The notes: generated from the sequence alone by a model not told the origin. 64,000 bases of DNA from an uncultured virus (IMG/VR IMGVR_UViG_3300043811_000020) (IMGVR_UViG_3300043811_000020), one strand, 5' to 3'; shown: positions 1-63,692, numbered from the stretch's first letter. Numbers and translations are program-made.

Positions 1-181
1 AAAACGGTTTTAGTTTGATCCGGAACCGGTTTAGTTTCTGCCGAAGGAGAGATCGCCGAGTTTTTTACCGCGGCGGTAACCGCCGACGCCCCGCGGTCAC
101 CCACCACCGCTGGCGGGGCCGCTGGGGCGCGACAAGCGGGACACGCTGTCATCGGGTCCCACCAGTTGTGTTTCGCGCAGA

Positions 182-418
182 TCATCGTTTGGCCTTTACG
201 AACTTTTGGGGCTTACAGCGTCGGTCGTGGGTACGTTTCTTGTTACGTCGCACCCGCACCCAGAGCTTCACTTCACCGGTGCGTCGGTTCACCTTTACAC
301 GTGTCTGATGCGTGTGAACAAGACCGCAGTCACAACAGGAGAGGTGCATGAGCCGGTACCATGGCAACCACTGTGACCAGCCGTACGTCGTTTCCGTAAC
401 ATATTTTCGGTATCTCAT
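182..418 (-). CDS. Small basic Cys/His protein (CCDCGLVH motif), putative Zn-binding
   Basis: ATG at 418 overlaps the PolA stop (ATGA); same CCDCGLVH motif as 54164..54400. Confidence 0.7.
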   Translation of the reverse strand: MRYRKYVTETTYGWSQWLPWYRLMHLSCCDCGLVHTHQTRVKVNRRTGEVKLWVRVRRNKKRTHDRRCKPQKFVKAKR

Positions 419-2397
419 TTGGCGTCCCCGTAGCTCTGCCCGAACCCGACTTCGCAGTCCAGCGGAATGGTCGGTGCCCACGACGGGCGCCGTACAAGCT
501 CCTGCTTCACAAGGGTGATAAAGTCCTGCACCGCGGCGTCAGGCACGATCCATGCGAGTTCGTCGTGTGACTGGAGCGCAAAGTCGATGTGCGTCCGGTC
601 GCCGATCCTGAGAGCCGCGTTCATGATCACGATGCGCGCCAGGAACTGCACGATGTTCTCTAGGAACTTTGAGCCGTAAATCTTGTGTTTCCGTCGGCCG
701 TAGTCGAACCAGTATTCACCTTCCTCCTGCCGGGGATTACCGTACTTCATGGTGAGACCACCAGGGCCTTCCACGCTGCCGGGTCCGATCAGCACCGGGC
801 CAAAGCGTACAGGTAACGTCTGCCCCATCCATACGGTGCGCAGGTGGCTGTCCAGCGTGCGCCACGCTTGCACGATTGGCTGGTGCGACGCTCGGTACAC
901 ATTCACAGAGTGCGCCGCAAGGTCCTGTGTCCACACGGTGAGCAGCTTCTTCACGTCCATTCCAAGGACACGAGCAGAGCGTACCACCATGTTGTAGAAC
1001 TTCTCGTCACCACAACCGAAACCCAACCCAAGCTCGCCAGACTTTCCGATAAAGCGCGGAGTGCCGGCATCAGTCTTCTTATCGACCGGCTTCCCAAATA
1101 TCTTTGAAGCAAGCACGCTGTACGCATCCTGCCCATTCGCGAACAGATTGAGAAGATCGTACTGGCCACAGATATACGCATTGATGCGACACTCGATTTG
1201 AGACAGATCGCCCACCACAACTTTGTGCCCAGGCGACGCGATCAGCGCCTTACGAAGCTTCGAATGGTTGGTCCCACGCCCGGCAGGGAGGTTCTGCATG
1301 TTGAGCAGCCAGTCGCCCGAGAGCCGGTGCGTGTGCGCGCCAGAGTACCGGAGCGGGATCGGCATCGAATGCTGCGACCAGAACGCGTTACCGTCGCGGT
1401 AATGGTTCTCCCACGGAAGCTCCGCGATTGAGAGCATCCGCGCCCCGCGCTTCTCTTCGATGGTCGAGCGCTCGCCCAAGCGCGCACTTGCGAGTGCCTG
1501 GATAACCGGGTCTTCGTGCTCCAGCAAGTCCGACATGAACTCGTCGGTCTTCGCGAACGCCGGTATCTGGCGGCTAGGGTCGCTGGTCGATGGCTTGTAC
1601 TGGATGTCCACGCCGTGCTGGATCAAAAGTTCTTCGAACTTGGCAGGGCTGCGAACTTTCTTCGCAAAGGCATCCAGGGCCGCGGTGAGTTGTGTGTCGT
1701 CTTGCAGGTCTAGCGCTCCCGTGCCGTTATCGGGAGGCATGCCAGCTGCAAGCCGTAGCGCCTTGATCTTTTCCACCTTCAGGTCGGCGAGGTGATCGCG
1801 GAGCATGTTCACGTCCACCATGAACTGGGGACACACCGCCATCCGTATCACCTTGTCCATGACGCGGCGCTCGCCCGTCGGGAACTCTTTCCACAGGTGT
1901 GCAAGGATGCCAGCGCTCAGTTCGTTGTCGTTGTTGGCGTAGGCTTGATACGCGCGCCATAGCCCAGGGTTCGCAATGAGAGCGGCTCTCCGGAGCCCCT
2001 TAGCATCTTGTATTGTCGTCCCCTTGACACCCAGTCCAAGGCTTTTTCCGACGATGGCCAAGGAAGCACCTGACAGCACGTGGCCTCGGAGGGCCACAGC
2101 CATCCGCATCGTGCACAGCATGCGGGCCGGAACAAATCCGTAATGCCACGCAAGGATACAATTATCAAACAGGGCATTAAACGCGACAGTCGTGGTTGTC
2201 TTGGGGTCGAACTGGGCGATATAGGCAGCAAAGTCTGGCCCATCGACAAAGTGAGATGCTTCGCCGTCAACCTTGCAGGCGCACCCGATAAGCTCCCATC
2301 GGGGGTCAAGGATGTAGTTCGGCGGCGCCATTTTTTTGAGACTGTACTCATTGTCGTAGTAGGTCTCAAAGTCCAGGAACAGAAGACGGTGCGGCAT
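415..2397 (-). CDS. polA: DNA polymerase family A with 3'-5' exonuclease domain
   Basis: ExoI LDFETY, ExoII FNALFD, motif A GDLSQIECR, motif B RFIGKSGELGLGFG, motif C SHDEL; start placed at MPHRLLFLD. Confidence 0.95.
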   Translation of the reverse strand: MPHRLLFLDFETYYDNEYSLKKMAPPNYILDPRWELIGCACKVDGEASHFVDGPDFAAYIAQFDPKTTTTVAFNALFDNCILAWHYGFVPARMLCTMRMAVALRGHVLSGASLAIVGKSLGLGVKGTTIQDAKGLRRAALIANPGLWRAYQAYANNDNELSAGILAHLWKEFPTGERRVMDKVIRMAVCPQFMVDVNMLRDHLADLKVEKIKALRLAAGMPPDNGTGALDLQDDTQLTAALDAFAKKVRSPAKFEELLIQHGVDIQYKPSTSDPSRQIPAFAKTDEFMSDLLEHEDPVIQALASARLGERSTIEEKRGARMLSIAELPWENHYRDGNAFWSQHSMPIPLRYSGAHTHRLSGDWLLNMQNLPAGRGTNHSKLRKALIASPGHKVVVGDLSQIECRINAYICGQYDLLNLFANGQDAYSVLASKIFGKPVDKKTDAGTPRFIGKSGELGLGFGCGDEKFYNMVVRSARVLGMDVKKLLTVWTQDLAAHSVNVYRASHQPIVQAWRTLDSHLRTVWMGQTLPVRFGPVLIGPGSVEGPGGLTMKYGNPRQEEGEYWFDYGRRKHKIYGSKFLENIVQFLARIVIMNAALRIGDRTHIDFALQSHDELAWIVPDAAVQDFITLVKQELVRRPSWAPTIPLDCEVGFGQSYGDAK

Positions 2398-2578
2398 GGC
2401 GGCGTTTACCCCAAAAATGTAGTAGACACACGGACCGCCACCCGTTGTACCAACGAACGTAGGCGTCCCAGTGTTCATCCGAAAGGCTGATCAGCTTCAG
2501 CTTCCGGTGCCGCTCGTCATAGCCGTGCAGCACGCCTATGGCAAGCATTTCTTCGGGCGTTAAAGCGTCGTCTTTCAT
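2366..2578 (-). CDS. Hypothetical protein
   Basis: 70-aa ORF coupled (ATGA) to the upstream gene in the leftward operon. Confidence 0.55.
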   Translation of the reverse strand: MKDDALTPEEMLAIGVLHGYDERHRKLKLISLSDEHWDAYVRWYNGWRSVCLLHFWGKRRHAAPSSVPGL

Positions 2579-3321
2579 TTGAGCATGAACCGCTGCGAGT
2601 ACGCCAAGTACACAGAGGTGGCGTCCTCTACTTTAGTGCCGTCGGCAACGTCCACACCCCACGTGGTAAGACCCTTGGCCTGCGCGGACATATTGAGCGT
2701 AATGATGCCCGACGCCAGGATGCCAGCGCACTCACGCATCATGGGGATCACCTTGTCCATGGGCGCGCTCGGCTCCTTGTACCGGATACCGTCTGCATGA
2801 TTGATCGGGTGCTCTGCCGGCAGGAGAGCGCACATGGCGGGGAAGTAGAACCGTGCTGCACCGGGCGTGGCGTTATCTTCCAGCCACGCGAGCACCGTTC
2901 GCACTTTGTTGAACTGCTTGTGGATATGCTCCACTTCCTTGAGTATGTTACAAATCGTGTTGTGCATCGGGTAGTCGGCGCGTGGCTCGGGCTTCTCTGC
3001 CGGTGGCAGAAAGTGCAGTCGATTATCCCCAAGCGACAAGTTGAAGTAGAACCTGCACACGGGGCCAGCGGGCACAATGATACCCGGGAAGTCGCAGTTT
3101 CCTTGGCCAACGGTTTCCCTGGTCAGGTCGTACGCTTCCAAGAGCGTATCGACCGTGCGCGCCGGCCACAGCCAGTACAGCAAGTCGTGCACCGTGAACT
3201 CGTCGCACGGTGTTACCGTGCGGTAAACCACCGCGGCCTCCATGCGGTTCAACGCTTCATTGGCGCCGCCAAACACAACGGGCGTCGCGCGGATACCTCG
3301 GCTATTTCGTCTTCGTGCCAT
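2575..3321 (-). CDS. Hypothetical protein
   Basis: 248-aa ORF, tightly packed in operon, AAGGA RBS. Confidence 0.75.
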   Translation of the reverse strand: MARRRNSRGIRATPVVFGGANEALNRMEAAVVYRTVTPCDEFTVHDLLYWLWPARTVDTLLEAYDLTRETVGQGNCDFPGIIVPAGPVCRFYFNLSLGDNRLHFLPPAEKPEPRADYPMHNTICNILKEVEHIHKQFNKVRTVLAWLEDNATPGAARFYFPAMCALLPAEHPINHADGIRYKEPSAPMDKVIPMMRECAGILASGIITLNMSAQAKGLTTWGVDVADGTKVEDATSVYLAYSQRFMLK

Positions 3322-3694
3322 TCGCGGGGGTTCCTTTCTTTCCGAATATCTCCACTAGAGCTTTGATTGCGTCGCCAAACGACGGATGCCCGGGCGGCGG
3401 TATGGAGGCGGGCTTGATAGTGCGTGGGGACTGCACCGAATTTTGGTACGTGTTGATGGGCGGGGAGGCGGCGCCCGGTTGTAACGTGCCAGCACCAGCT
3501 TGCTGTGCGTTCTGGTTCGCGGCTTCCGGCTCGGGCTCAGCATCTTTGGCAGCGCGTGCGACATTCTGGTATATGGTCTTAGCGTCGAGCGTGGCCATCC
3601 AGGCATCCTCGCGCTCGAAGCCCGGGCGGAACACATGCGCCCGGGCCACGATGTATCGCTCAGCGAATGAGCGGAAGCGATCATAATCAGGCAT
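3302..3694 (-). CDS. Hypothetical protein
   Basis: 130-aa ORF preceded by GGAG RBS. Confidence 0.7.
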   Translation of the reverse strand: MPDYDRFRSFAERYIVARAHVFRPGFEREDAWMATLDAKTIYQNVARAAKDAEPEPEAANQNAQQAGAGTLQPGAASPPINTYQNSVQSPRTIKPASIPPPGHPSFGDAIKALVEIFGKKGTPANGTKTK

Positions 3695-3703
3695 CGGTGT
3701 CTC

Positions 3704-3841
3704 CTAATCCATCGCCCAAACGATCAGCAGGAACACCCCGACACCAGTCAGTGTCCAACCACCGGCGCCGCCGATCCACAAGCCCAGGGCAAGCAACCCC
3801 AGGCCACAGATAAGGGCTTTCGGATCAAATCTGTACCTCAT
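3704..3841 (-). CDS. Small membrane protein (45 aa, two hydrophobic segments)
   Basis: Translated by hand: MRYRFDPKALICGLGLLALGLWIGGAGGWTLTGVGVFLLIVWAMD; fills the gap with an ATGA overlap; below the ORF-track cutoff. Confidence 0.65.
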   Translation of the reverse strand: MRYRFDPKALICGLGLLALGLWIGGAGGWTLTGVGVFLLIVWAMD

Positions 3842-5256
3842 GGTGTACGTCCTTTCTTGTTGACGCGGACAACCTGCCCGTACGGGTATTTGTGGTCCGT
3901 GCTGCTCGCCCAGATTACGGGGAACCGCGGCTCCTTGAGGAAGTTCACGTACCCGTCAGTGAACCCGATGAACAAGTCCGGATCGCCATGGTTGTTCTTG
4001 GCGATCCACTCGAACACGGGCTCCATACTCGTTCCGCCACCGCCCGCCGTGCCGCGGTGCCGGATACGCTCCAGGTCCATCGGGTCGTCGATCTCGTCCA
4101 CGTAGTCGATAGCCGCGTCGCACCAGATCACGGTGAGCCTTGCCGGGTTCACATCGGCCATGATGCCAGCAAGCTCTGCCATATTAGAAGCAATTTCATC
4201 GTCACCGCGAGAGCCACTGGTATCACCCCAAACAACGATCCAGCCAGCACCAGTTCCAGTAGGGCTCGGCTGATAGATGTCCAGCACGCCATACCACGGG
4301 TCTGGTGTCGTCCAGTCATAGCCGCCGTCTCCTGTCACTCGGTTGATCAAGGTCTGGATGTGGTCGACCCACGGCACCTCGGGCTCTAGGATTTCCGCGA
4401 ACATCCTCTTGAGCGCGCCGGCCATCTTGCCCTGCGCCTTGGCGCTCTCGATCACCTGCGCCGCGGCAATCTCCACTGCCCACTGTTGCGGATTACGTGA
4501 ACTCGCAGCCTGCGCAGGGTTCTGACCCGTCGTGTTCCCCGGAGCCAGAAGTTGATCGAACCCGCCCGGGTTGTTACCGCCCGGTAAATCGCCGGGGCCA
4601 CCGCCGTCGCCGTCCTGTTCCTTCTTTTTCTTGTAGTAGGTCTGGTACACGTCCAGGACACTATCGTTGGCTTTCACCTTGTCATCGTAGTGCCCGCAGT
4701 CCTTGCCGTCGCACTTGCGCGGTGCTTTACCTATGCGGCTCTCGATCAAGAGCGCGTTGATCCGCGCATCCATGGCCTTCTGCATCGTCTCGTTGTCGAA
4801 CGGCAGAGAAGACCCGTCGTGCAGCGGCACCTTGCCGGCCTGCACGCACCGGTGAAGCAACTCCACGTCGCCGTAGACGTTGTGCACGATCTCGTGCGCC
4901 GCCACGAACACACGCTCGGGCAAGCTCCACTTGAAGAACGTGTCCGGGTTGAGGATCATGTTACCGCCGTCGGTCGCAGCATAGGGCACGCTGCGCGACA
5001 TGACGGCAGTGTACTTGCTCTTACCCTCGTTGTGCGTCTTCGACAGCATCTTGTAGAAGATGTGCCGGAAGCCCGGGGCAGTCCATGCCATCATTGACAT
5101 GGTATCGTTCCACTTCGCCTCGTCTTGCGGCGAGAGCGTCAAGGGTTGGACAAGCCCCGGCTGCTGTGGCGAAGCGGTATCTGGGGTTGGTTGCGGGCCA
5201 ACCGTAGGTGCGCTCGCACCAGTCGAAGACTTCGGTATAAGTGTCGTGGATGTCAT
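3838..5256 (-). CDS. Metallopeptidase-like (HExxH) + vWA domain protein (DUF2201-like)
   Basis: AATDG..HEIVH motif; MIDAS DTSGS, GGGGT, FTDGY; AAGGA RBS before 5256. Confidence 0.9.
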   Translation of the reverse strand: MTSTTLIPKSSTGASAPTVGPQPTPDTASPQQPGLVQPLTLSPQDEAKWNDTMSMMAWTAPGFRHIFYKMLSKTHNEGKSKYTAVMSRSVPYAATDGGNMILNPDTFFKWSLPERVFVAAHEIVHNVYGDVELLHRCVQAGKVPLHDGSSLPFDNETMQKAMDARINALLIESRIGKAPRKCDGKDCGHYDDKVKANDSVLDVYQTYYKKKKEQDGDGGGPGDLPGGNNPGGFDQLLAPGNTTGQNPAQAASSRNPQQWAVEIAAAQVIESAKAQGKMAGALKRMFAEILEPEVPWVDHIQTLINRVTGDGGYDWTTPDPWYGVLDIYQPSPTGTGAGWIVVWGDTSGSRGDDEIASNMAELAGIMADVNPARLTVIWCDAAIDYVDEIDDPMDLERIRHRGTAGGGGTSMEPVFEWIAKNNHGDPDLFIGFTDGYVNFLKEPRFPVIWASSTDHKYPYGQVVRVNKKGRTP

Positions 5257-5461
5257 CTGCGATTTTCCTTTCCCAGTCTGATAACGATATGGAGACCTGA
5301 ATATCAACGAGACACATGTGGTGGTGGCGTTTCAGGTACGCCGTGTACCGGTTAAAGGCGGCGATCCGGTGGCGGTTCCAACACTCGCGCCACGTCGCGC
5401 ATCGCCGCCGCGTCGCACCGTCGGCCGAAAGGACGCAACCCATGCCTTGTACCTTTCCCAG

Positions 5462-5740
5462 TCAGCGTCCGGCATACCGGGCAACGCCCACATCACCCAC
5501 AGCCGGTGCCGATTGCGATATTCTTCGACTATTCGTAGGTGCGGTGGGGCGTAGGAAGTCCGCTTCCCACTCTTGGAACGCGCGCCACTCATCGAAGCTC
5601 CAATTGATACGCAGCACGTTATGAACGCGTTCATGCCGGCGCAGGTAACGGTTGATCAACTGCTGACGCTTCTTCGTCAGCACGATGCCGTGTTTCACCT
5701 TGACGCCGCTAGGCCGCTCACGTGCCGTTGTTCTTGTCAT
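5462..5740 (-). CDS. Hypothetical protein
   Basis: 92-aa ORF filling the operon gap; alternative frames overlap. Confidence 0.45.
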   Translation of the reverse strand: MTRTTARERPSGVKVKHGIVLTKKRQQLINRYLRRHERVHNVLRINWSFDEWRAFQEWEADFLRPTAPTNSRRISQSAPAVGDVGVARYAGR

Positions 5741-6245
5741 GCTGCATGTCCCGCAGCGCGCTCAGCATTTCCTCGCTGACAGGAGCCTCGCCTCCCACCG
5801 TGTCACCATGGTCTTCGATGGCTTTGCCGAGCTTGTCCTCCATGAGGTCGATTTCATCATGGCCGGTGAAGAAGTCGTCACTGAAAGCCACGACCTGCGG
5901 CTTGATCCCATCCGCCAAGAGCGCGATGGTTGCGTAAATATGTACCGCGGCGCGTCGCACCGCCTCTGTGATGGCCTCGTTCTTCTCCTGGTCGGCGAAG
6001 TCGGCACGGGCCTCAATGGTCCACTGTCGTTGCATCTGTATCCCTTTCACTTGGTTGTCGCGGTCTGTGTACCGCGGATCGTTCATACGCCACAGGACCA
6101 TCCGGTCAAGGATGTCTGGGTTACCGAGTATCTCTGGGCACTGCGACGTAGCATGTGCCCAGGCTTTGATTTGGTTGCGCCCCACGGTTTTGTATCCTGC
6201 TGTTAGCGCGTAAGGCGCAATTTCGTCACTGCGAAAGCGACGCAA
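5718..6245 (-). CDS. Hypothetical protein
   Basis: 175-aa ORF overlapping the ATPase stop; acidic C-terminus. Confidence 0.75.
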   Translation of the reverse strand: MRRFRSDEIAPYALTAGYKTVGRNQIKAWAHATSQCPEILGNPDILDRMVLWRMNDPRYTDRDNQVKGIQMQRQWTIEARADFADQEKNEAITEAVRRAAVHIYATIALLADGIKPQVVAFSDDFFTGHDEIDLMEDKLGKAIEDHGDTVGGEAPVSEEMLSALRDMQHDKNNGT

Positions 6246-7377
6246 TGATGCTCACCATCGCAGCGTTCTTGCTGATCCACGCCTGCATCGCCGGCTCGTT
6301 GATAATCTTCTTGTAGTCCCGGCGCAACAGGCTGGAGATGAACGTGACGCTCATGTCCTTCGGCAGCCTGCCGACGTACTGGATCACTTCGGCAAGGTGC
6401 TCAACGCGGCACCGGCCCGCAAGCTCATACGCCATGAGCATCTGCAAGTCGGCCTTGGTGGGCACCGGCGTACCTTTCGGGTCCTTCACCACGTCCTCGT
6501 AGTGCGGAAGCTCCAGCATGAACTTCAACTCCGAGGTGTAGCTCATCATGGCCGGCGTGCCGATATGCCCGGCAAGGCTCTCCATGAACGCGCTGTCGTT
6601 GGCCGGTGCTTGGCCGCCGTTGTCGTCAGTGGCCACCTGCACGTACCGGTCTGCGTTGGTGATGGTGCGCGGGTTGCACCACGGTCCCTGCTTCTCGGGC
6701 TTGCTCTCGAAGAGGATTTCCGGATGGTTGCGCGCCCAAGCCTTCGTGAACGGGGTCACGAACCACTGCTTCCCCTGCCACGAATACGGCTTGTCCGCAA
6801 AGTCCTCGATCCACACGTCCACGTCACCCGTGATCTCGATCTCACCACGCCGCCCGATGATGAAATCGAACTCCTTGGTGACGCCGTCACGGGCGTCCAC
6901 GTTCGTGAGAGCGATGCGAGGCGAGCCAGCCGGCAGATAGAACGGAGGCGTGCCGCCAGCCCGCAGGACCTCTGCACCGGCCCGCTTGGTCTCTGCTGAA
7001 CCTTGGCCCCACTCTTCGATGACCAAGACCACGCTGTCGAAGCAGCACGCCGGCAGGCGGTCGCCAGTGTCCAGGCACGTGGCCATGTACCACTGCGGAA
7101 TGGCCGGGTCGGTCACCGTGAACTGGTGGTCGACGCCAGCTTGGTCCTTCCACGTGGCGCTGCCCTTCCACGGCAGGCCAGTGAACCCGATTGGGCTCTG
7201 GGTCGCCATGAAAAAGCACGACAAGCCCACGCGCTTGCCGGGGTTCTGCTGCCGCCACCATGCGGCGAGCTTGGCCATCAGGTCCGTCTTGCCGAAGCCC
7301 GGCGGACCCTTGAGGATCGTGGCGTTCCCCGCCAGAATGTTGTAGCGGAGTTGCTTGAACGCGTCTCGAAGGTTCAT
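6226..7377 (-). CDS. AAA+ ATPase (MoxR-like)
   Basis: Walker A GPPGFGKT, Walker B LVIEE, sensor-like CNPRT; AAGGAG RBS; near the vWA gene. Confidence 0.9.
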   Translation of the reverse strand: MNLRDAFKQLRYNILAGNATILKGPPGFGKTDLMAKLAAWWRQQNPGKRVGLSCFFMATQSPIGFTGLPWKGSATWKDQAGVDHQFTVTDPAIPQWYMATCLDTGDRLPACCFDSVVLVIEEWGQGSAETKRAGAEVLRAGGTPPFYLPAGSPRIALTNVDARDGVTKEFDFIIGRRGEIEITGDVDVWIEDFADKPYSWQGKQWFVTPFTKAWARNHPEILFESKPEKQGPWCNPRTITNADRYVQVATDDNGGQAPANDSAFMESLAGHIGTPAMMSYTSELKFMLELPHYEDVVKDPKGTPVPTKADLQMLMAYELAGRCRVEHLAEVIQYVGRLPKDMSVTFISSLLRRDYKKIINEPAMQAWISKNAAMVSIIASLSQ

Positions 7378-7548
7378 GTAGTCGCTCCTTTCGTTGTGCA
7401 GTTTCACGCCAATCGGTGGTGGCATCGTTCTCACCGGGCTCGTAGGTTACATGATCGCCCATGCAACCAAACCCACGATGCCACCGCCGATGGGCGCGGC
7501 GTTACCGCGCGGTAACGCCATCGCCGCGTCGCACGCTCTTAGGTGGGA

Positions 7549-8019
7549 TTAAGTCCCCCTGATATTGCCCTTGCCCTTCTTCTCGATCCACGCGTGCTTC
7601 GGGTAAACCTGCTTGATGTACGCACGGACGAGCTTGCGCACATAAGGCGAAGATTGGAACACGGCGCAAACACGCTTAAGCTCGGTTCGCGACGCAGCTA
7701 GCGCCTGAAAATGATGCTCGATGGCTCTGGCCTGCTCGGAGGTATACCCGGTACGTAAGAGCTTAGTATCCCACATCTGCTTGATCACGCGTTCGATACG
7801 CGTCATTTCGTTGAGAACCGGGCAATCGGCAAGGCTGATCATGTTCAGCAGCCGTACCTTTACCTCGTTCTTGGGCTTGTGGGACCTAATATAAGCCGCG
7901 CGCTCCATCACATCCTCGCCGTACTCGAACAATACTGTGTGATGCAGCATGGCGAAGTAGCCTTCCTTAGGACCGACATAGTTCGGCCGGCCGGGAAACA
8001 ACTTGTTGGGTTTCTGCAT
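7549..8019 (-). CDS. Hypothetical protein
   Basis: ORF with GAAAGGA RBS before ATG 8019. Confidence 0.7.
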   Translation of the reverse strand: MQKPNKLFPGRPNYVGPKEGYFAMLHHTVLFEYGEDVMERAAYIRSHKPKNEVKVRLLNMISLADCPVLNEMTRIERVIKQMWDTKLLRTGYTSEQARAIEHHFQALAASRTELKRVCAVFQSSPYVRKLVRAYIKQVYPKHAWIEKKGKGNIRGT

Positions 8020-8065
8020 AGTAGTCCTTTCTTTGGTTGATCTGTAATCCCTTTCAAAACGTGGT

Positions 8066-8106
8066 TGGGCTCCCCGGGCGAAAGGAATAAACTCCCGGGG
8101 AGCCCA
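8066..8106. terminator. 13-bp perfect stem-loop (terminator or regulatory hairpin)
   Basis: TGGGCTCCCCGGG / CCCGGGGAGCCCA with a 15-nt loop, intergenic. Confidence 0.55.
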
Positions 8107-8137
8107 GCAGCTGCCGCTTGGCCCTTTCATGGGGCTA

Positions 8138-9118
8138 CTAGGCAGCCGCAGTCGTACTCGCCTGCGTGCTCATGGTAGTCTGCGCACCGCCGGGAGCGCG
8201 AGCCTTGGCGATGGCGGCGAGGCGTTTGGTGCACAGCTGCGCGATCTGCTTGACCTCGGCAGAGGCGTCGAGATCGGGGCAGTTTGACACCTTGCCGCTG
8301 GCGAGGTTGTTGGCCAGCTTCCTGATGGCTTCGAGCACTTCCTCGCCAGTCCGTGCCTCAGGGTCCTTCTTGAAGCAGAACGTGCGAAGCTCGCTGTCAT
8401 CCATCAGCGTGTCGCGCTTGAGTTGCTGTGTGGCGAAGCGCATCAGCGTGTTGTGCGCATCGTCCAGCTTCTTGGCGTGAGCCGGGTCCTTGCGCAGCGC
8501 CTGCCTGATGCTCATGAGCTTGCCCACAGTCTGCATGGGCTCGCCCTGACCCCACTTCGGCGTAGTGCCGAGCTTGATCATCTTGCGCGTGGTGCTGATC
8601 AACTTGCGCTGATTGGCAGCCTTGACGTCGAAGATCAGCGCCTTGTTGGCCGCAGTGGCGTACGCCTCAGAGAGCTTGGTAGCGTCGTCCACGTCGTCGC
8701 CATGACGGTTCCTGTCCAGGTTCAGCGAGCCGAGATACGCCGCCTCGCACACCTTGAGATCGAACTTGATCTGGCCGTCTTTCGCTTCGCCAAAGGTTTT
8801 CCCGAGCGCAGCAACGTCCTCCATGAGGGACTGGAGTGTTGGTGCGTTCGCACCGGGGGCCTGTGAGGCCACCGTACCAGTAACACCGAGAGTGCTCATG
8901 CTTGCTCCTTTCGTTCTGCGCCGTGTCTTGGTCGGAACTGTGGGGGCGGCCGGCGCGGGCGCCACCGTTTCGCCGCGTCGCACCGCCTCGGCCTTCTGGT
9001 CGAGAGTATCCAGAAGACTTTTCACAGTGCCCTGCGTAGTCTCGTCGGTCAGAAGGGCGCGGATGCGCTCGATCTGAGTATCTTCGGTGCTTCGCACCGT
9101 ATTCGCGCTCGTGTTCAT
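8138..9118 (-). CDS. Hypothetical early protein (helical)
   Basis: Long ORF with GC-rich codon usage and GGAG RBS; possible internal start at 8899 (AAGGAG). Confidence 0.8.
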   Translation of the reverse strand: MNTSANTVRSTEDTQIERIRALLTDETTQGTVKSLLDTLDQKAEAVRRGETVAPAPAAPTVPTKTRRRTKGASMSTLGVTGTVASQAPGANAPTLQSLMEDVAALGKTFGEAKDGQIKFDLKVCEAAYLGSLNLDRNRHGDDVDDATKLSEAYATAANKALIFDVKAANQRKLISTTRKMIKLGTTPKWGQGEPMQTVGKLMSIRQALRKDPAHAKKLDDAHNTLMRFATQQLKRDTLMDDSELRTFCFKKDPEARTGEEVLEAIRKLANNLASGKVSNCPDLDASAEVKQIAQLCTKRLAAIAKARAPGGAQTTMSTQASTTAAA

Positions 9119-9372
9119 TGTCGTGCTCCGTGGTTGCTCGGGGTTTAGACGCCCGATTAACGACGGATATAACACTTGGTTGCACGCCCGCTGTTCAATA
9201 TTGCTCACCCCCCGATCACACCTTCGTGATAAGTGTGAAGAACGTGACCAACAACAAAAACACGATTACCGCGGCGGTAACCGCGAGCGTGCGACGGCAC
9301 GACGTATTAGTGTGTGCCAGCAGGCGCGACGGAACATCGTCTCGCATCAGGCTCATGAGCCGCACTAAGCCG

Positions 9373-10629: not shown

Positions 10630-10739
10630 GGTCCGGTTCCTTTCAACCGTCTCGGCGGTTACCGCTGCGGTAACCAGGGGGGCGCCGCGGCGCGGATTTT
10701 GGGCGTCGGCGGCATCGCCGCCGCGTCGCACGCGCCCCG

Positions 10740-54454: not shown

Positions 54455-54694
54455 CTAGTTCAGCGGCGACGGCCTGCGCTCGCGAATAGTCTGTAGAGCT
54501 TGGGGAGCATGATCACGCGTGAACACTGCCCAGGGATACACACCCCCTCCCACAAACGCCACACAACACCCTATATCCCCGTCAGCGTCTATAGCGTTCT
54601 CAGGGATATAGGTTACTGGAAGCCACCGGCCTTCAAAGAAAATTTCGTAGCGCGCGTTCTTAACGTCGAGTTCGTCCTCAGGCGATAGGTCCAT
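54455..54694 (-). CDS. Hypothetical protein
   Basis: AGGAG RBS; AT-richer. Confidence 0.6.
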   Translation of the reverse strand: MDLSPEDELDVKNARYEIFFEGRWLPVTYIPENAIDADGDIGCCVAFVGGGVYPWAVFTRDHAPQALQTIRERRPSPLN

Positions 54695-57600
54695 TAGTCG
54701 CTCCTGTCATACCCTGCACCAACGCTAGATCACTGCGCGCCTGCGTTACCGCGGCGGTAATCGTGTCGTCCGTGATCTCAGCCTCGTCCTCCTCGGCGAC
54801 CGGCCGCTCCGTGATTGCCGTCTGTCGGAACAGCATACTCTCAAACGGTGAACCCGCCGGCACAGGGATACGCATGACGGTCTCGCGCAGGCCGCCGACG
54901 CCGGTGCCAACGGCCAAGTCCACCTTGTGAACCGTCTTCGCGTCGTAGTGCCGCTCCATCGACTTGATCACCATGAGCGGGCTGGTTGTCTGGAGCTTCG
55001 CCAGTTCCACCTCCAGGCGCTTCTTGGAGATGTCGATTACCCGGTCGTTGACCGAGCACCGAATATTGATCGGTGCAGGGCGGTCCTTGCTCGGGCCGGC
55101 AAGGTGAACGATGGCGTCCGGGAAACCCTTCTTGCGCGACGGCATGGACTGCACCCAGAGGGTGTTACCCACGAGCGCCTTGGTGACCTGGGCGAGCAGG
55201 TTGAGCGTGTTCGCCGCGGTGCCGCCGACGATCTCTGCGCGCGCCACCGTCTGCCGCTGGGCGAAATACTGTTCCTTCAGCCACGTCCAGAGGTTTTCCA
55301 GGTGGAACTCGCACCCTAATTGGTTGGCGAGTTCAGCGCCGCAGAAGATCGCCGTGGCAATGGCCGAGTGGAACCGTTCTTCATTCGAGTGATCAACCTC
55401 GCGGTTGAACTGCGCGCGCTTGGCGCGCACGTACTTACCGATCCCTTCCGGGTCCGATCCCAGGAGGTGACCGTAGGCGAGACCCATGTGCCCGTAGTTG
55501 TGGTCCAAAGAAGCCATCAAACGGGACACGTCTGCCTCGGGAATATTACTGGGCCGGCGCGCCACACGGAACTCGAAGATACGTTGCAGTGTCGCGTCGG
55601 TGCCGTTGGTCTTCCGCATGATGTTGTCGGAGAGCGACTGGTTGCTCGCCACAACCATGAGCGTCTGCCAGTCCTCGACGTGGAACATCTCCCGGGATTG
55701 TTTCAACCTTGACGCCCCGCCGCCCTCGGTCAGCATGCCGAGCATGTCCCTGATTTCGTCCATCTTGTCCTCGGTGCTGATCTCGTCCCAGAACACCGGG
55801 AGGTTTTTTATACAATCCAGCTTCTTGAGGATGCCTTTCTGGGACGACAACGGCCGCTCCTTGGTGAGCTTGGGGCATCCCCACGCGCTGGCGCCGACCT
55901 GGATCGCTGTGCTCTTGCCGGCGCCGCTCTCGGGCGACCATGGCGCCAGGATCGCGTTGTACTGGTCGCAGAACGTCATGAGCGGCGCGCCAAAACCCGA
56001 CGCGGTGATAGCTTCACCGGGGGCGTAGTTCTGATCCGTGATGATCTTGCACGCACGCGTCCAGAGGGTGCCGTCGCCGACGGGCTTGTAGGCCATCTCG
56101 ATCTCTTGATCGGAGAACCCGGAAATCTGTACCTCGCCGCCTGCGCGCACGACACGGCCGCCGTACGCGAACCCGACAGGAACGTCGCCGCCCTTTTCTT
56201 TGTCGTACAGCCAGCCAAAGGGGATGGTGTCAAGACGCCGCTGTGCGCCGTCTAGCTTCTCTGTCCAGGAAGTCATGAAGTGAGCGATCCTACGCTGGTT
56301 GGGAACGTACGGCTTCACGCCGAAGCTCCGCAGGGATTTGATGAGCGTCTGCTCGGTGGCCAGATCAGTCTCGAATATCGCTACAGGCCCCCACGTACCA
56401 CCATCGAGCGAAGTCTCAAACATGATCTTGCGGGAACCACGTTGGAGTATCGGCTTCCGCAGCTGGCACATGAACAGCGTCGCAAGCTGGTTGGCGTCGA
56501 CCCCGTTATTCAGGTCCTTGGTGACGATCTCGCAAATGTACCCAGTCTCACGGTCCACCGTAAACCCGGCAGGGAGCATCAGGTCCTCCGGGGGAGGCGG
56601 CGCTGCGTTGATGGTGATAGATGGCGGCTGGACGCGCTCGGCGAGATTAAGCGGGCTGCGTAGTTTGCCATGGTAGGGACAAGTCTTGCAGGATTTACAT
56701 CCCTCGCTCTCGAACGCGACGCACGACGGCCAGCCTAGAGTGCCCTCCCGCTCGCGGAGCTTGCGATCATACATCGCGTCTGTCTCGTCTCGCGTGTACG
56801 TCGGGTACCCCTTCGAGAAATAATGTGCCCACTGCCGGCCGTCCTCGAACCACGTAGACGCCAGCATGGTCAGCATCCATAGGCCCTGTCCGTGGTCCTT
56901 GCCGTGATGCAAGGCGCTGTCCTGGAAGTGCCCGCAGTGCTTGAACACTTCGTCAGGGTTCAGCGGCAGGTCGTTGTGAAGGTTGATCCCTTCGGCGAGG
57001 CTGTCATACTGCGGCAGGGGCAGGTTCGCCGCCAATAGAGCGTTCATGCCCCGCCCGGTGAACTGCGCAAGATCGAACGGAAGTACCGTCTTCGCGCTTA
57101 CCGCCGCGGTAACAGCAAGTGGGGCTTTCTGTGGAGCCAGCGCTGAAAGGTGCGCCAGAGCGGTTTTAAAATCATAACTTGCTCCGAGGTGAACCAACCT
57201 AACGGGGCGCGAGGGAATTTGTTTGTTGTTGAAAGTTCCCGGTACACGTAAAATCCGCGCTTCGTCCGTGGTGAGACCGGCATCGCACCGAAGACCCAAT
57301 CGCAGCATCTCAGCTTTGAGCCCTTCAGCGTAGGGCCGCCACTCAGGCACCATGAGGGGTTTGTCGCTGATCCAGTAGACGTGGACGCCGCCGCCTGTGA
57401 GCACCAGAGCCGACGGAGCCGGTAGTTTCGCCGCCCGATAGAACTGATCGATGCCGTCCAGTGCTTCCTTGAGCGTCGCATATCCCTTGTCCGGTTTCAC
57501 GTCTACGTCGATCCAGATGGCCTTGAGGCGCATAGAGGTGGGCTTGGAGCGCGCGGCGATGGCCTGCCCGTGTATCACCTTGCCGGTGCATGACTGTGTC

Positions 57601-57809
57601 GACAGGCAGAAGTAGATTTCTTTATACACGCTGGGCTTGGTCGCAGCGTACTGCGCCATGTCCATGAACTCGTGCACATCCTTGAAGGGCTTCCCACGGA
57701 GCCCGTGACCGCGGCTCTCGCTCGGCTTCCAATGAAGGTTCACGTAGCCGGGGCCATCAGGTCCCGGCCACGCAACAACTTGTTCCATGAACTCCTGAGG
57801 AGTAGGCAC
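54678..57809 (-). CDS. Primase-helicase (RepB/AEP-like primase + DUF927 P-loop domain)
   Basis: WIDVD, TGGGVHVYW, RILRVPGT; CxxC cluster; SGAGKST, VFWDE, HNYGH. Confidence 0.9.
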   Translation of the reverse strand: MPTPQEFMEQVVAWPGPDGPGYVNLHWKPSESRGHGLRGKPFKDVHEFMDMAQYAATKPSVYKEIYFCLSTQSCTGKVIHGQAIAARSKPTSMRLKAIWIDVDVKPDKGYATLKEALDGIDQFYRAAKLPAPSALVLTGGGVHVYWISDKPLMVPEWRPYAEGLKAEMLRLGLRCDAGLTTDEARILRVPGTFNNKQIPSRPVRLVHLGASYDFKTALAHLSALAPQKAPLAVTAAVSAKTVLPFDLAQFTGRGMNALLAANLPLPQYDSLAEGINLHNDLPLNPDEVFKHCGHFQDSALHHGKDHGQGLWMLTMLASTWFEDGRQWAHYFSKGYPTYTRDETDAMYDRKLREREGTLGWPSCVAFESEGCKSCKTCPYHGKLRSPLNLAERVQPPSITINAAPPPPEDLMLPAGFTVDRETGYICEIVTKDLNNGVDANQLATLFMCQLRKPILQRGSRKIMFETSLDGGTWGPVAIFETDLATEQTLIKSLRSFGVKPYVPNQRRIAHFMTSWTEKLDGAQRRLDTIPFGWLYDKEKGGDVPVGFAYGGRVVRAGGEVQISGFSDQEIEMAYKPVGDGTLWTRACKIITDQNYAPGEAITASGFGAPLMTFCDQYNAILAPWSPESGAGKSTAIQVGASAWGCPKLTKERPLSSQKGILKKLDCIKNLPVFWDEISTEDKMDEIRDMLGMLTEGGGASRLKQSREMFHVEDWQTLMVVASNQSLSDNIMRKTNGTDATLQRIFEFRVARRPSNIPEADVSRLMASLDHNYGHMGLAYGHLLGSDPEGIGKYVRAKRAQFNREVDHSNEERFHSAIATAIFCGAELANQLGCEFHLENLWTWLKEQYFAQRQTVARAEIVGGTAANTLNLLAQVTKALVGNTLWVQSMPSRKKGFPDAIVHLAGPSKDRPAPINIRCSVNDRVIDISKKRLEVELAKLQTTSPLMVIKSMERHYDAKTVHKVDLAVGTGVGGLRETVMRIPVPAGSPFESMLFRQTAITERPVAEEDEAEITDDTITAAVTQARSDLALVQGMTGATNGPIA

Positions 57810-59042: not shown

Positions 59043-59089
59043 GACGGGCACTCCTTCGTGAGGGGGTTGTTACCGCGACGGTAAAACGA

Positions 59090-59491
59090 TCAGTCCTTTT
59101 TGCCGCTCGGCCGTCGCACACCGAGCGTCTGGATGGCGTTGAGGTTGCATCCTGCGGGAAGTTGGTTGTGCTCGTTCACATAGTCCTTGACGGCCTGCGC
59201 GTTGGCGCGGCGCTCGATCAAATCCCAGTGACCCTCTTTGACGAAATTCATGAAGGCTTCCGCGTCCGCCACGCTGGCGGTCCATCTGGTGGAGAGGTAG
59301 CACGTACCGGCCCTGGACTTCAAGCCGTCCGTGATGTTGTTGATCTCCATGAATGCACGGATACGTCCTGACAGCTGTTCCTGAATATCGAGTAAAGGCT
59401 TCTTCTCAGCCTCGTACTTTTCGTCGACACGTTTGATCGCGTCACGAACTTGGATGTACTGCGCGATGCGCTTTTCGATGTCTTCCGCCAT
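59090..59491 (-). CDS. Conserved-type replication-module protein
   Basis: YIQVRD coiled coil, GTCY, DLIERR, PAG; GGAG RBS. Confidence 0.75.
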   Translation of the reverse strand: MAEDIEKRIAQYIQVRDAIKRVDEKYEAEKKPLLDIQEQLSGRIRAFMEINNITDGLKSRAGTCYLSTRWTASVADAEAFMNFVKEGHWDLIERRANAQAVKDYVNEHNQLPAGCNLNAIQTLGVRRPSGKKD

Positions 59492-60656: not shown

Positions 60657-62201
60657 TCATAGTGCGGTACCGGTAGCTTCCTCGACCAGTTCCAGGAAGC
60701 TGTTCTGCATCTTCTGGTGATCCCGCAACATTCGGTAGAGCTTTCGTTCAACCGGCGTGGCTTGAAGGTGTAGCAGTTGCTGTTTGTGCAGCTGTCCAAT
60801 CCGGGTGATACGCGCATTGAATTGGTCATACACGTCCAGCGACGCAAAAGGCAAGTACCAAATGATCATGTCCGCCGCTGTGAGCGTGAGCCCGTGGTGC
60901 ACACAGCCAGGGTGGGCAAGCATGGACTGATACTTGTCGGTGTTTTGAAACAGGTTGAACAGACGCTCCCGGTCCGGCGTGTCACCGTGCACGCAACAAT
61001 GGTCGATCTCCACGCCCTTCATGTTGAAAATCCGACTTATGCCGTCGATCATGTGCCGGTAAGGAACTGCGATCAGGACTTTGTTATTGGCGGACCTGAT
61101 CAGGTCCGCCATGGCCACGATCCTCGGGCTCGGGTCCACGCGCACGAACTCGGGGCGCTGTGTGTACACCCAGCCACCGGCGATCTGTAGGAGCTTGTTC
61201 ATCGCAGCACCGGCATTGAGCGCGGTGATACGCTTATCCTTGATGTCAGCCACCATGGCGGTCGCCACACGTTTGTACACCTTCTCTTGCTCTGCCGAGA
61301 GGGGCACGTCCACCGTGCGTGAGATAAGCGGCGGTAGCTCGACCACGTCCTCCAGGGCATACCGGCAGGAGGGCTGCATCCAGCCGAAGGCCCGCTTCTC
61401 AGCGTCAGGCTTGGGGCGCCAGAGATAATTACTCACGTGCGTCATGAGCATTTCGCGGGCGTGACCCTGGTACCGCGGCACTCGCCCAGGGGTGACGATC
61501 ATGCACTGCGCCCACACGTCGGTCGGCTCGTTGGGCATTGGCGCCCCGGTCATACCCCACACGATACTGAACCTGTTCGCGAATTTTCTCATTCGTTTTG
61601 AACGGTCAGAATTATTTCGGTATACAGCCAACTCGTCCAGGACCAACGTATCAATGTCAGCCCGGGTCCAAAGTTCAGTCTCAATGACCCTAAGCCCGTC
61701 GTGATTGATGACGTATATGTCTGCATCTCGTGATAAGGCGTCCAGGCGTGCTTGGCGCGAGCCATGCAAAATCTCCACGCGGCGTCCAGGGAGTGTACGG
61801 AAGGCTTCGGCTGCCCATACAAAGCGAAGCGTCGAGAGGGGAGCAACCACCAACAACTTTTTGGCGAGACCTTGCTTATTAAGATAATCCCACGCCCAAA
61901 GTGCAGTCTTAGTCTTGCCGGTCCCCATGTGATTGAGTACGTACGCATGCGGGTTCTCCGTGAGCATCCGACACGTGGCGCGCTGCACCGCGTACGGCGT
62001 GCCGCCGCACCAGTCGTAGTAGAAGTCGACAGGGTTCGGAACCTTGTAGCCCAGGTGCCGCAGCATCAGCACCTCGCGCAGGCCGTGCGGCACGACGCGG
62101 TTACCGTCCGGTAACACCGGCGCCGCAGGGAACATGCTCGCGACGCCGGGGCTGTCAGGCACCACCAGACATTGGTTCGCTCGTGACACCTTCACAGGCA
62201 T
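60657..62201 (-). CDS. SF2 (SNF2-like) helicase
   Basis: MGTGKT, VVAPLS, LVLDE, MTGAP, HGLTLT, QFNARITRIGQ. Confidence 0.92.
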   Translation of the reverse strand: MPVKVSRANQCLVVPDSPGVASMFPAAPVLPDGNRVVPHGLREVLMLRHLGYKVPNPVDFYYDWCGGTPYAVQRATCRMLTENPHAYVLNHMGTGKTKTALWAWDYLNKQGLAKKLLVVAPLSTLRFVWAAEAFRTLPGRRVEILHGSRQARLDALSRDADIYVINHDGLRVIETELWTRADIDTLVLDELAVYRNNSDRSKRMRKFANRFSIVWGMTGAPMPNEPTDVWAQCMIVTPGRVPRYQGHAREMLMTHVSNYLWRPKPDAEKRAFGWMQPSCRYALEDVVELPPLISRTVDVPLSAEQEKVYKRVATAMVADIKDKRITALNAGAAMNKLLQIAGGWVYTQRPEFVRVDPSPRIVAMADLIRSANNKVLIAVPYRHMIDGISRIFNMKGVEIDHCCVHGDTPDRERLFNLFQNTDKYQSMLAHPGCVHHGLTLTAADMIIWYLPFASLDVYDQFNARITRIGQLHKQQLLHLQATPVERKLYRMLRDHQKMQNSFLELVEEATGTAL

Positions 62202-62710: not shown

Positions 62711-63066
62711 GCCACTCTCCGATCTGCGTAGTGCTTGTAGTTGGTCTCGCTCTTGCCGCGTGCCGGCATGATGTCCTTCGGGGCGTAACACCCCATCCAC
62801 ACCACGGGCTCATGCGGCGTCTTGCGCTTGACAGCGATGTAGCTCCAGATGCCGTCACTGAGTTTCTTCTGAACGAGTGTCACCTTGCCGGCCTCCATCG
62901 CTTCCCATGCCGCCTTGCGTGTATTCCACGCCTTCATGAAATCGATCCCGAAGTTGGTGTCCCACCACAAAAGCCCGACGTGGTAGATGATCTGGTCTCC
63001 GGGCTTCGCCGATGCGACGTATTCCTCAAACGTTGCTCGCGCCATCGTGACGGGCCGTGCGCTCAT
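62707..63066 (-). CDS. Hypothetical protein
   Basis: GGGAGG RBS; PGDQIIYHVG..LVQKK..YIA. Confidence 0.7.
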   Translation of the reverse strand: MSARPVTMARATFEEYVASAKPGDQIIYHVGLLWWDTNFGIDFMKAWNTRKAAWEAMEAGKVTLVQKKLSDGIWSYIAVKRKTPHEPVVWMGCYAPKDIMPARGKSETNYKHYADRRVA

Positions 63067-63134
63067 AACCAACCTCCCTATTTAATAACGATCCACCGCC
63101 GCAAACGAAAGACGCAAACCGTACCGAGCGCAAA

Positions 63135-63351
63135 TCAAGTTTTCGTGAACGGTGTGCGCTCGTGCCGGCGTCCCATCGTCCAGTTCTTCGGCAGGCGAAT
63201 TTCCGGGTTAGGGAATGTCCAACACTCTCCAGTCTCGTCCAGGAACACCACCCACATGAGGTGATGCTCTGTGTCGTAGTCCAGCAGGAAGTGTGCTTCC
63301 CCGACCCTTGGGTGTGTCGAGGGGCAGCGGCGGACTGATGCGTGTCAGCAC
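63135..63351 (-). pseudogene. Frameshifted small phage gene
   Basis: MLTRISPPLPLDTPKG in one frame, EAHFLLDYDTEHHLMWVVFLDETGECWTFPNPEIR in the next; span 217 nt (3n+1). Confidence 0.6.
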
Positions 63352-63692
63352 TGTGAAGTGCCTTCTACCTGCCGCTTCATGCGCTCACGGGTGCGCTGGT
63401 TGAGCCACATGAGGCCCTGCTCGATGTTGGTGATAGCGAGAGCGTTCTCGCGGCACGCGTACTTGCCCTTCTGGAAGTAGTTCAGCCGGTCCAGTACGAT
63501 GGCTAGGAGCGCTTCGTTGGTGATCCCGTTGATACCCACCTCGTTGATCGGGCCGAACTGGAAGTCCAGACGGTACATCCCCTGCGGGAACGTAAGGCTG
63601 TAGTGCACCGGCTCGCCGGTCGGCGCTTCGATTACCGTGACGGTAATCTGATCATTCACCGGGTTCACCTTGTGCTGGTCGAGGGTTCGCAT
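63345..63692 (-). CDS. tad1: Tad1-like anti-defence (immune-signal sponge) protein
   Basis: FQFGP..NGITNEALLAIVLDRL..FQKG...RENALAIT.IEQGLMWL..R..ER..R.VEGT matches the Tad1 pattern as I recall it; GGAG RBS. Confidence 0.8.
   Translation of the reverse strand: MRTLDQHKVNPVNDQITVTVIEAPTGEPVHYSLTFPQGMYRLDFQFGPINEVGINGITNEALLAIVLDRLNYFQKGKYACRENALAITNIEQGLMWLNQRTRERMKRQVEGTSQC

Follow-up and report, generated by a model that had tools for sequence, protein, structure and literature searches.

The 64,000-nt stretch of DNA analyzed here (hereafter the window; uncultured virus IMGVR_UViG_3300043811_000020 of the IMG/VR database) carries an array of a short palindrome, TTACCG-N2-4-CGGTAA, which is one half of a real, conserved and co-evolving cis/trans system of a kind that has been described once before. 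New in this case are the lineage, the motif, the varying length of its spacer, the way in which the motif is retuned while genomic positions stay fixed, the mutual spacing of the sites, and a linked gene block with a candidate reader. The window derives from a podovirus-like phage, as judged from PHROG and Pfam scans of its open reading frames (ORFs), and the array lineage consists of podoviruses of approximately 65 kb related to Rhizobium phage RHph_TM3_14A (TM3_14A). We favor, with somewhat better than even confidence, the interpretation that the palindromes are read as duplex DNA by a phage-encoded, dimer-like protein coded in the linked block, with a putative role in DNA metabolism or chromosome organization.

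There are 21 exact matches to the motif in the window and none in any of 100 dinucleotide-preserving shuffles, and all 21 lie exactly where a first-pass annotation of this DNA had placed them. That annotation also listed three one-mismatch variants. Two of these, at 36561 and 37603, are real (mononucleotide shuffles average 0.37), while the third, at 29419, is merely a looser TTAC-N6-8-GTAA match, as deduced from the list of gaps between sites. The total for the window is 21-23 copies per 64 kb, in coding and non-coding DNA alike. Over the 21 exact copies the spacer is 2 nt long in eight, 3 nt in 12 and 4 nt in one; its first base is a pyrimidine in 19/21 and its last base a purine in 18/21. 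A G precedes TTAC in 63% of half-sites, and in its extended form the motif is a dyad repeat, GTTACCG-N2-4-CGGTAAC, with two 7-bp inverted arms around the short variable spacer. Only the paired motif is enriched: the window has 30 TTACCG and 37 CGGTAA hexamers, 21 of each being part of a palindrome, and because the leftover hexamers are close to the base-composition expectation (about 13.5, by rough arithmetic), lone half-sites are not in excess. The copies, 5' to 3', are as follows; G-numbers denote relatives introduced below.

65-79, palindrome with a 3-nt spacer, outside called genes
1388-1402, palindrome inside the DNA polymerase I gene; TM3_14A and G011 have a site at the same alignment column
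3213-3226, palindrome inside the gene for a 248-aa protein of the block
4574-4587, palindrome inside the vWA-metallopeptidase gene
7502-7515, palindrome, intergenic, upstream of the ATPase gene
9266-9280, palindrome just upstream of the 8138-9208 gene
10659-10673, palindrome in a large early non-coding region
12211-12224, palindrome whose terminal TAA is the stop codon of ORF 11913-12224
15740-15754, palindrome 8 nt past a collagen-like tail-fiber gene
20913-20926, palindrome 21 nt upstream of the portal gene; the TM3_14A copy is 15 nt upstream of its portal gene
27313-27326, palindrome in the glycosyltransferase gene; same column in G007
31766-31780, palindrome in a small ORF; conserved in G008 and G015
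36561-36575, one-mismatch copy, CTACCG...CGGTAA
37603-37617, one-mismatch copy, TTACCA...CGGTAA, in the endolysin gene
41502-41517, palindrome with a 4-nt spacer in an internal virion protein gene; same column in G002, as TTACAG
46086-46100, palindrome in an 807-aa ejection-protein-like gene
50241-50255, palindrome in a 1768-aa gene; co-located with a G002 site
53236-53249, palindrome in the 1768-aa gene
54746-54760, palindrome in the primase/helicase gene; same column in G002, as TTACAG
57098-57112, palindrome in the primase/helicase gene
59070-59084, palindrome, intergenic, 5 nt past a 133-aa gene
62101-62114, palindrome in the SNF2-type helicase gene; same column in G002, G007 and G011
63632-63646, palindrome in the Acb2/Tad1-like gene

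Window genes were called by a simple rule based on GC content at third codon positions and corrected with PHROG matches. These rough calls place 15 of the 21 exact copies in coding sequence, in all three reading phases. The number expected in genes was far smaller: a mean of 0.117 and a maximum of two over 1000 synonymous-codon shuffles that kept the proteins and the codon usage of each gene, and 0.004 over 1000 codon permutations. The enrichment therefore stands when measured against codon-preserving shuffles.

The closest named phages are Rhizobium phages RHph_TM3_14A, TM27A, TM27B and TM29, with a capsid identity of 66.8%, and at least 598 capsid relatives are present in IMG/VR. A megablast of 20 kb of the window against known phages gave no match, and among sequencing-run contigs the window DNA was encountered in soil metagenomes only; these contigs yielded few variants and no molecule ends. 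A protein of the window is also recorded on a contig of 66,709 bp. TM3_14A has no TTACCG..CGGTAA palindrome; it carries 34 copies of TTACC-N5-6-GGTAA, usually as gTTACCT-N4-AGGTAAc. We scored further relatives, as whole IMG/VR genomes, for TTAC-N6-8-GTAA, with the same pattern read backwards as control:

G001, 23 pattern matches and 2 control matches, array
G002, 20 and 1, array
G003, 10 and 4, array
G007, 20 and 5, array
G008, 21 and 2, array
G011, 24 and 3, array
G015, 15 and 0, array
G004, 0 and 2, array-free
G005, 1 and 1, array-free
G009, 5 and 5, array-free
G010, 1 and 6, array-free
G012, 0 and 4, array-free
G013, 3 and 1, array-free
G014, 6 and 6, array-free
G006, 10 and 2, intermediate

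The TTAC...GTAA core is invariant among the arrays. The inner bases differ by genome (CG, GG, AG, TG or CT), as do the flanks and the inner spacing, which is 6 or 7, 7 only, or 7 or 8. The half-site logos are:

window, G007, G008 and G015, G-TTAC-C-G-Y
G011, T-G-TTAC-C-G-R
G001, TTAC-G-G
G002, C-G-TTAC-A/C-G
G003, TTAC-T-G
TM3_14A, G-TTAC-C-T

Despite these differences, sites recur at the same places. Cross-genome pairs of sites no more than three alignment columns apart number 23, versus 1.92 expected and a maximum of eight over 2000 permutations, and at shared positions every genome bears its own motif class. At PolA column 129, for example, three genomes have TTACGA..CCGTAA, TTACTA..CAGTAA and TTACCA..CGGTAA, respectively. 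At the helicase site the window encodes LPDGN and G002 LQGGN, the change from CCG to CAG replacing Pro with Gln. Since orthologous sites are kept despite such forced amino-acid changes, selection must act on the nucleic acid and not on the peptide, as the first-pass annotation had proposed. The sites are therefore old, and all sites of one genome change in concert. Concerted change at conserved positions is the mark of a trans-acting reader with an evolving specificity.

Two window sites can be aligned to array-free positions in G006, one without gaps and the other with a 3-nt gap. The near-gapless alignment indicates that sites arise by substitution and not by insertion. G006 (loci L231-L234) is the closest relative of the window by capsid (94%) and portal (82%). 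We considered whether its own sites are the decaying relic of an array; this was unsupported, as they are not at the window's positions. Several other repeats were also set aside. Pentamer palindromes in relatives (ACCGG..CCGGT and GGGCC..GGCCC) proved to be an artefact of Gly-X-Y codon repeats in collagen-like fiber genes, and such codon repeats dominate naive repeat scans in this phage group. Repeated 9-mers in the array-free G009 and G010 are terminal iterons and an early-region motif, respectively, and neither is a genome-wide array. In G009 (loci L243-L246) iteron runs of CATTCGCCA(a) occur at 54-103 and 68763-68832, in the terminal repeats. G010 (loci L247-L250) has 11 copies of the non-palindromic ACGTTGCCA(c), mostly in one 6-kb early region (~53.5-59.1 kb), which may be a different regulatory motif.

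The sites also keep their distance from one another. Gaps between adjacent window sites run from 1323 to 6400 bp, and the smallest of them exceeds the smallest gap in every one of 5000 random placements. The same holds in 7/9 genomes (smallest gap larger than chance, P<0.03), and across array genomes, with 15-35 sites each, the sites stay at least 0.5-1.3 kb apart. Judging from the gap lists, the replication and early arms have approximately three times the site density of the virion-gene arm. Nine genomes together hold 202 sites, 146 in genes (72%) and 56 between genes (28%). When 201 of these sites were oriented by local transcription (one was too near a contig end), there was no conserved or AT-rich flank beyond the position adjoining the core, and no T- or AT-rich stretch downstream (<0.15 bit at +2 to +40). 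The missing oriented flank, the symmetry of the site and the 72% of sites in genes argue against a composite promoter or an intrinsic terminator. Of the 189 sites with a same-strand gene start downstream, 28 lie 0-40 nt upstream of it, a placement for which we roughly estimate a chance expectation of about 5%; non-coding DNA makes up roughly 10-13%. The excess, approximately threefold both in non-coding DNA and close upstream of starts, may reflect weaker constraint there, or regulation.

The array is linked to a gene block. We surveyed 17 whole genomes, the window and 16 relatives, by tblastn of window ORFs against the relatives. The block (window 2575-9208) is syntenic and adjoins the DNA polymerase gene. 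Its genes, together with an exonuclease gene at 18670-19776, were found in array-bearing and array-free relatives as follows:

2575-3321, minus strand, 248-aa orphan protein with no recognized fold; 7/8 array-bearing, 0/7 array-free
3302-3694, minus strand, 130-aa protein; 5/8 array-bearing, 0/7 array-free
3838-5307, minus strand, metallopeptidase (HExxH) with vWA (DUF2201_N and DUF2201); 8/8 array-bearing, 0/7 array-free
5718-6245, minus strand, 175-aa acidic protein; 6/8 array-bearing, 0/7 array-free
6226-7434, minus strand, P-loop ATPase; 8/8 array-bearing, 0/7 array-free
8138-9208, minus strand, 356-aa protein, candidate site binder; 7/8 array-bearing, 0/7 array-free (tblastn)
18670-19776, minus strand, exonuclease; 7/8 array-bearing, 1/7 array-free

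All seven array-free genomes are rated 100% complete. In a protein tree of the large terminase, portal and major capsid protein, array-bearing and array-free genomes are interleaved, and therefore the link of array and block does not stem from a single split. Using a relative of the 356-aa protein, we fetched nine further IMG/VR loci, and all nine carry TTACCG-class arrays, at 0.22-0.58 sites per kb. TM3_14A also has the 356-aa family, by blastp, elsewhere in its genome (counterpart at record positions 18372-19100). A 133-aa protein (59090-59491, minus strand) with weak similarity to Mu Gam and DUF7307 occurs in 8/8 array-bearing and 5/7 array-free genomes; by these counts it and the exonuclease seem to follow the array in part.

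The first-pass annotation had named the proteins encoded at 15899 and 16446 as possible binders. These do not track the array: the 15899 protein is present in 6/8 array-bearing and 7/7 array-free relatives, and because it is shared by both alike it is not the array reader. It is a 190-aa protein with an OmpR/PhoB-type winged helix (15899-16471, plus strand; Trans_reg_C, E 2.7e-8). Approximately 730 bp separate its gene from the 3' end of the gene for the large terminase, which is on the opposite strand, and the protein may be a small terminase.

The vWA-metallopeptidase matches gp25 of N4-like phages in 365 phage records. In phage G7C, gp24 is upstream of gp25, with a homing-endonuclease gene between them, the same order as the ATPase and vWA genes of the block; from this gene order and not by alignment, we take the block ATPase to be the gp24 counterpart. 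No dominant palindrome array was found in the first 50 kb of G7C, so the array calls for more than the ATPase/vWA pair as an explanation. In 185,579 bacterial species genomes the vWA protein had no relative. NCBIfam and PADLOC scans of the block proteins returned weak P-loop matches only. When PDB sequences were searched with profiles, the 356-aa, 248-aa and vWA families had no significant match, those of the ATPase did not go beyond the P-loop level, and an ESM Atlas search of the block yielded no named family above 0.9. A model of the 248-aa protein of fair quality (predicted local distance difference test, pLDDT, 80.8) had no Foldseek match in the PDB at E<=0.001 and a best VIA-align Z of 4.8.

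Our lead for the reader is the 356-aa protein, as it is the only one of 17 families whose divergence clearly tracks motif class. Its identity is 50.0% between genomes with the same motif and 39.5% between genomes with different motifs; in the other 16 families, which include block, replication and virion proteins, the corresponding difference ranges from -1.6 to +5.7 points. G002 illustrates this pattern. It is the closest genome to the window in ATPase (61%), primase (53%) and helicase (67%), yet its motif is the most deviant, and its 356-aa protein, 30% identical to that of the window, is the most distant among the metagenome relatives. The family is basic, with an isoelectric point of 8.9-9.9 in 8/9 genomes, and forms 343 clusters in a library of 1.8 billion representatives. 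The conserved core of the 8138-9208 protein is approximately the last 240 aa, and the true start of the gene is probably later than 9208. The core is modeled as all-helical (pLDDT 92.2). A BFVD structure search with it returned two uncharacterized phage proteins only, tblastn found no match to the core among known phages, and an IMG/VR search from the protein recovered close relatives only. Weak sigma-factor rows (E>1) in structure searches with the 356-aa and 248-aa models were discounted as evidence.

The known system that this array most resembles is the 17-bp dyad repeat of the Cluster O mycobacteriophages, which in Corndog reads TGTTCGG-NNN-CCGAACA (PMC4351075). According to that paper, the approximately 70-kb Corndog genome has 34 copies, 14 of them intergenic, 10 close to 5' ends and another 10 inside genes; relatives keep most of the positions, the host genome does not contain the motif, and the authors propose a dimeric DNA-binding protein and leave the function of the repeat unexplained (PMC4351075). 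Our own scan reproduced the 34 Corndog copies. The two arrays share 7-bp inverted arms, a 3-bp spacer (the most common length in the window), tens of copies, and a partial location in genes (PMC4351075). They differ in motif, host phylum and phage type, Corndog being a siphovirus, and the Corndog spacer is fixed at 3 bp while that in the window is variable. Mutual spacing is not seen in Corndog, where the smallest gap is 35 bp (P=0.57) and the sites crowd at one end of the genome. Neither retuning of the motif among relatives nor a linked gene block is reported for Cluster O (PMC4351075). Both phage groups have glycosyltransferase and O-methyltransferase genes near the portal gene, in the same odd placement (PMC4351075). 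In the window a 685-aa glycosyltransferase and a class I methyltransferase (25927-29310, plus strand) are encoded downstream of the portal and upstream of the capsid gene, and a 269-aa ORF and three collagen-like fiber genes separate them from the portal.

A tblastn search with window ORFs revealed no protein shared with Corndog at E<=0.01, except for one weak match of 37 aa. This match is between a 68-aa ORF (9216-9422, minus strand), which contains site 9266, and Corndog gp76 (35% identity over 37 aa, E 0.004). Corndog gp76 is a helix-turn-helix protein that the Cluster O authors list as a candidate binder (PMC4351075). The 68-aa ORF has no counterpart in any of the 16 relatives, and the match is therefore probably due to chance. 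The resemblance to the Cluster O repeats is one of kind and not of family. The first-pass annotation knew of no described system with this motif; the motif itself was indeed not found in the literature, but the same kind of array exists in the Cluster O phages. Our search, which did not extend to subscription journals, found no publication on the present array, including among follow-ups of the Cluster O repeat.

Three other systems invite comparison. The stoperators of Cluster A mycobacteriophages are a short motif present in tens of copies across a phage genome; the protein that binds them is encoded by the phage, and its specificity co-evolves with the sites and is not the same in related phages. 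As sites, stoperators are asymmetric, follow the direction of transcription and are mostly intergenic, and they serve the immunity repressor of temperate phages, whereas the present sites are symmetric, mostly in genes and without a conserved oriented flank (201/202 sites). No immunity repressor or integrase family was detected among the 60 ORFs scanned with PHROGs or the 25 scanned with Pfam, which make up a part of the window's ORFs. ParB-parS systems, including the repABC parS suggested earlier as a loose parallel, also have a 16-bp palindrome with GTT...AAC ends that is bound by a dimer and whose specificity diversifies between replicons. However, a parS system has only a few sites, in a cluster close to the par genes, and the sites here are dispersed, mutually spaced and variable in spacer. 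This layout weakens the partition option, and no ParB-like match appeared among the scanned ORFs (60 with PHROGs and 25 with Pfam, a part of the total). N4-like phages share the gp24/gp25 pair, in the same order as the block ATPase and vWA genes, and differ in that G7C lacks a dominant palindrome array over its first 50 kb. The hairpin promoters of N4 are three sites read by a giant virion polymerase.

The interpretation we favor would work as follows. The palindromes would be cis sites on duplex DNA for a sequence-specific, dimer-like phage protein, with half-sites of approximately 8-9 bp (n-G-TTAC-x-y-z) and a total specificity of 16-17 bp. By arithmetic the half-site centers are 9-11 bp apart, about one helical turn, so both would face the same side of the helix; the flexible dimer raised in the first-pass annotation fits this geometry. 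The recognizer would be encoded in the block beside the polymerase gene, and the best candidate is the basic, all-helical 8138-9208 protein. Sites and recognizer would co-evolve, with drifts in specificity followed by retuning in place of the 15-35 sites of a genome. The sites may serve as points, set at intervals, where proteins of replication or recombination are loaded or anchored, and on which the gp24/gp25-like ATPase and vWA-metallopeptidase possibly act. We prefer a role in DNA metabolism or organization because of the mutual spacing, the density of sites in the arms and the location of the block among replication genes; a stoperator-like regulon would rank second and hairpin signals third.

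Several observations weigh against this interpretation. Rigid dimers do not usually tolerate spacers differing in length by 1-2 bp. The core of the 356-aa protein has no recognizable DNA-binding fold (no Foldseek match in the PDB at E<=0.001, best VIA-align Z 6.0), and the test in which its identity tracked motif class comprised nine genomes, with a single motif class that has more than one member. Since the genes of the block travel as a unit, they cannot be separated by co-occurrence, and the co-occurrence count is small, with the number of independent events made uncertain by phage mosaicism. G006 is without the block and yet has 10 TTAC-N6-8-GTAA matches versus two in the control, several of them with one inner mismatch. 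In G003, arms were complementary more often than free assortment predicts at one position (9 sites versus 5.7 expected, P=0.01). Finally, the 28% of sites that are intergenic and the approximately threefold excess 0-40 nt upstream of gene starts would suit regulation as well.

This last point leads to the rivals. The same binder and sites could have a transcriptional output, acting as operators, roadblocks, insulators or activator sites for middle or late genes on the host RNA polymerase. Besides the excess of intergenic sites over the non-coding fraction and the 28/189 sites close upstream of starts, 10/34 TM3_14A sites are intergenic and eight more touch a gene end or lie within 10 nt of one, the portal gene has a copy close upstream in the window and in TM3_14A alike, and the finding of no phage RNA polymerase among 60 ORFs makes control of the host polymerase by phage factors plausible. 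We nevertheless regard this output as unlikely, although it deserves to be kept in mind, since symmetric sites carry no direction, no -10-like or AT-rich oriented element stands at a fixed distance, the 72% of sites in genes include many in mid-gene at conserved columns, and the block is located among replication genes. A role in transcription initiation or termination as such is less likely than one in DNA metabolism. For their own repeat the Cluster O authors doubted such a role, most sites being away from promoters (PMC4351075). A reading of the sites by a host factor or host defense, as decoys, Chi-like protective sites or targets countered by the block, would account for motif classes that differ among phages of unidentified hosts, as the classes would then mirror hosts; the window also carries a counter-defense fold (Acb2/Tad1-like), and the ATPase has a weak match (E 0.0011) to the PADLOC defense model MkoA. 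We consider this improbable, because the array is linked to phage genes: it follows the phage block and not the virion-gene phylogeny, and one block protein diverges in step with the motif. Moreover, the vWA protein has no relative in the bacterial species genomes searched, and among the matches listed in bacteria (120 stretches) no contig recurs, though three stretches have two close copies.

The sites could also act in single-stranded form, as DNA or RNA hairpins for priming or nicking, N4-style promoters, RNA stem-loops or cruciforms. A loop would easily tolerate the variable spacer (2-4 nt, or 4-6 nt between TTACC and GGTAA), both arms always change together between genomes, the 1.3-3 kb between sites in the replication arms is within the range of Okazaki fragments, and N4-like phages, in which early promoters take the form of hairpins, have relatives of the ATPase and vWA proteins among their core genes. 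A homodimer, however, predicts symmetric change of the arms between genomes equally well, and within genomes the arms vary independently. At arm position 5 in G002, 12 sites are complementary versus 13.5 expected under free assortment; the inner positions of TM3_14A give 34 versus 35.5 and 21 versus 24.2, and those of G008 18 versus 18.1. In 8/20 G002 sites TTACAG is paired with a CGGTAA-type arm, which leaves a non-wobble mismatch at arm position 5. Predicted hairpins are weak, though not impossible, with mean energies of -4.3 kcal/mol as DNA and -6.7 kcal/mol as RNA and a range down to -1.6; a 2-nt spacer leaves a 5-bp stem, with -1.9 kcal/mol as DNA in one example. There is no conserved loop sequence and no strand asymmetry relative to transcription, and no giant virion RNA polymerase was detected among 60 ORFs. 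We thus assign the hairpin or cruciform option of the first-pass annotation a low probability. It is very improbable that the array is a functionless by-product, either of a small mobile palindrome or of a mutation or repair bias from a block enzyme. Short over-represented palindromes without a proven role do exist, such as HIP1 of cyanobacteria, but the present sites arise by substitution, are mutually spaced and are held at orthologous columns across deep divergence, and a specificity of 16-17 bp far exceeds known repair biases. No transposase family, as would go with REP/MITE-like mobile palindromes (repetitive extragenic palindromes or miniature inverted-repeat transposable elements), matched in the general PHROG and Pfam ORF scans. 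Independent arms and the lack of an oriented flank speak for a dimeric protein that reads duplex DNA, and against a hairpin, promoter or terminator.

The remaining gene content of the window is in keeping with a podovirus-like phage that also encodes internal virion proteins. The assigned genes are:

415-2478, DNA polymerase I
17198-18691, large terminase, on the strand opposite to 15899-16471
20948-23236, portal
33034-34056, major capsid protein
54678-57809, DUF927 primase/helicase
60657-62201, SNF2-type helicase
63345-63752, minus strand, Acb2/Tad1-like protein of 135 aa (Pfam PF24729 hairpin domain, E 1e-6)

The Acb2/Tad1-like protein is likely, by its domain, a sponge for defense signaling nucleotides, and was not found by tblastn in any of the 16 relatives. 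There are five collagen-like (Gly-X-Y) fiber genes (13755-15731, 24080-25864 and 35651-36430, plus strand), three of which are tandem paralogs.

Returning to the dimer-like reader, dispersed palindromes within phage genes had been seen once before, in Cluster O, and left unexplained; the present case makes the question testable. It offers candidate machinery, in a block that always accompanies the array, is missing where the array is missing, and includes one protein that drifts in step with the motif. The same genomic positions hold at least six motif classes, which are natural specificity variants, and there is a cultured relative, RHph_TM3_14A on the non-pathogen Rhizobium etli, with 34 sites. 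A bolder picture, which we put forward only tentatively and think possible rather than probable, is that these lytic soil phages have a private whole-genome address system, in which an orphan protein family would read 15-35 evenly spaced palindromes, with a code retuned from phage to phage, and would together with the widespread gp24/gp25-type pair mark, organize or replicate the phage's own chromosome. If true, this would be a new class of cis/trans system and would offer, for the first time, a way into the function of the Cluster O repeats as well as of the N4 core genes gp24 and gp25. If the block reads the sites, it would provide the first clue to a gene pair that is conserved across N4-like phages, and it would reveal how a DNA code of many sites is able to change while the proteins through which it is written stay intact.

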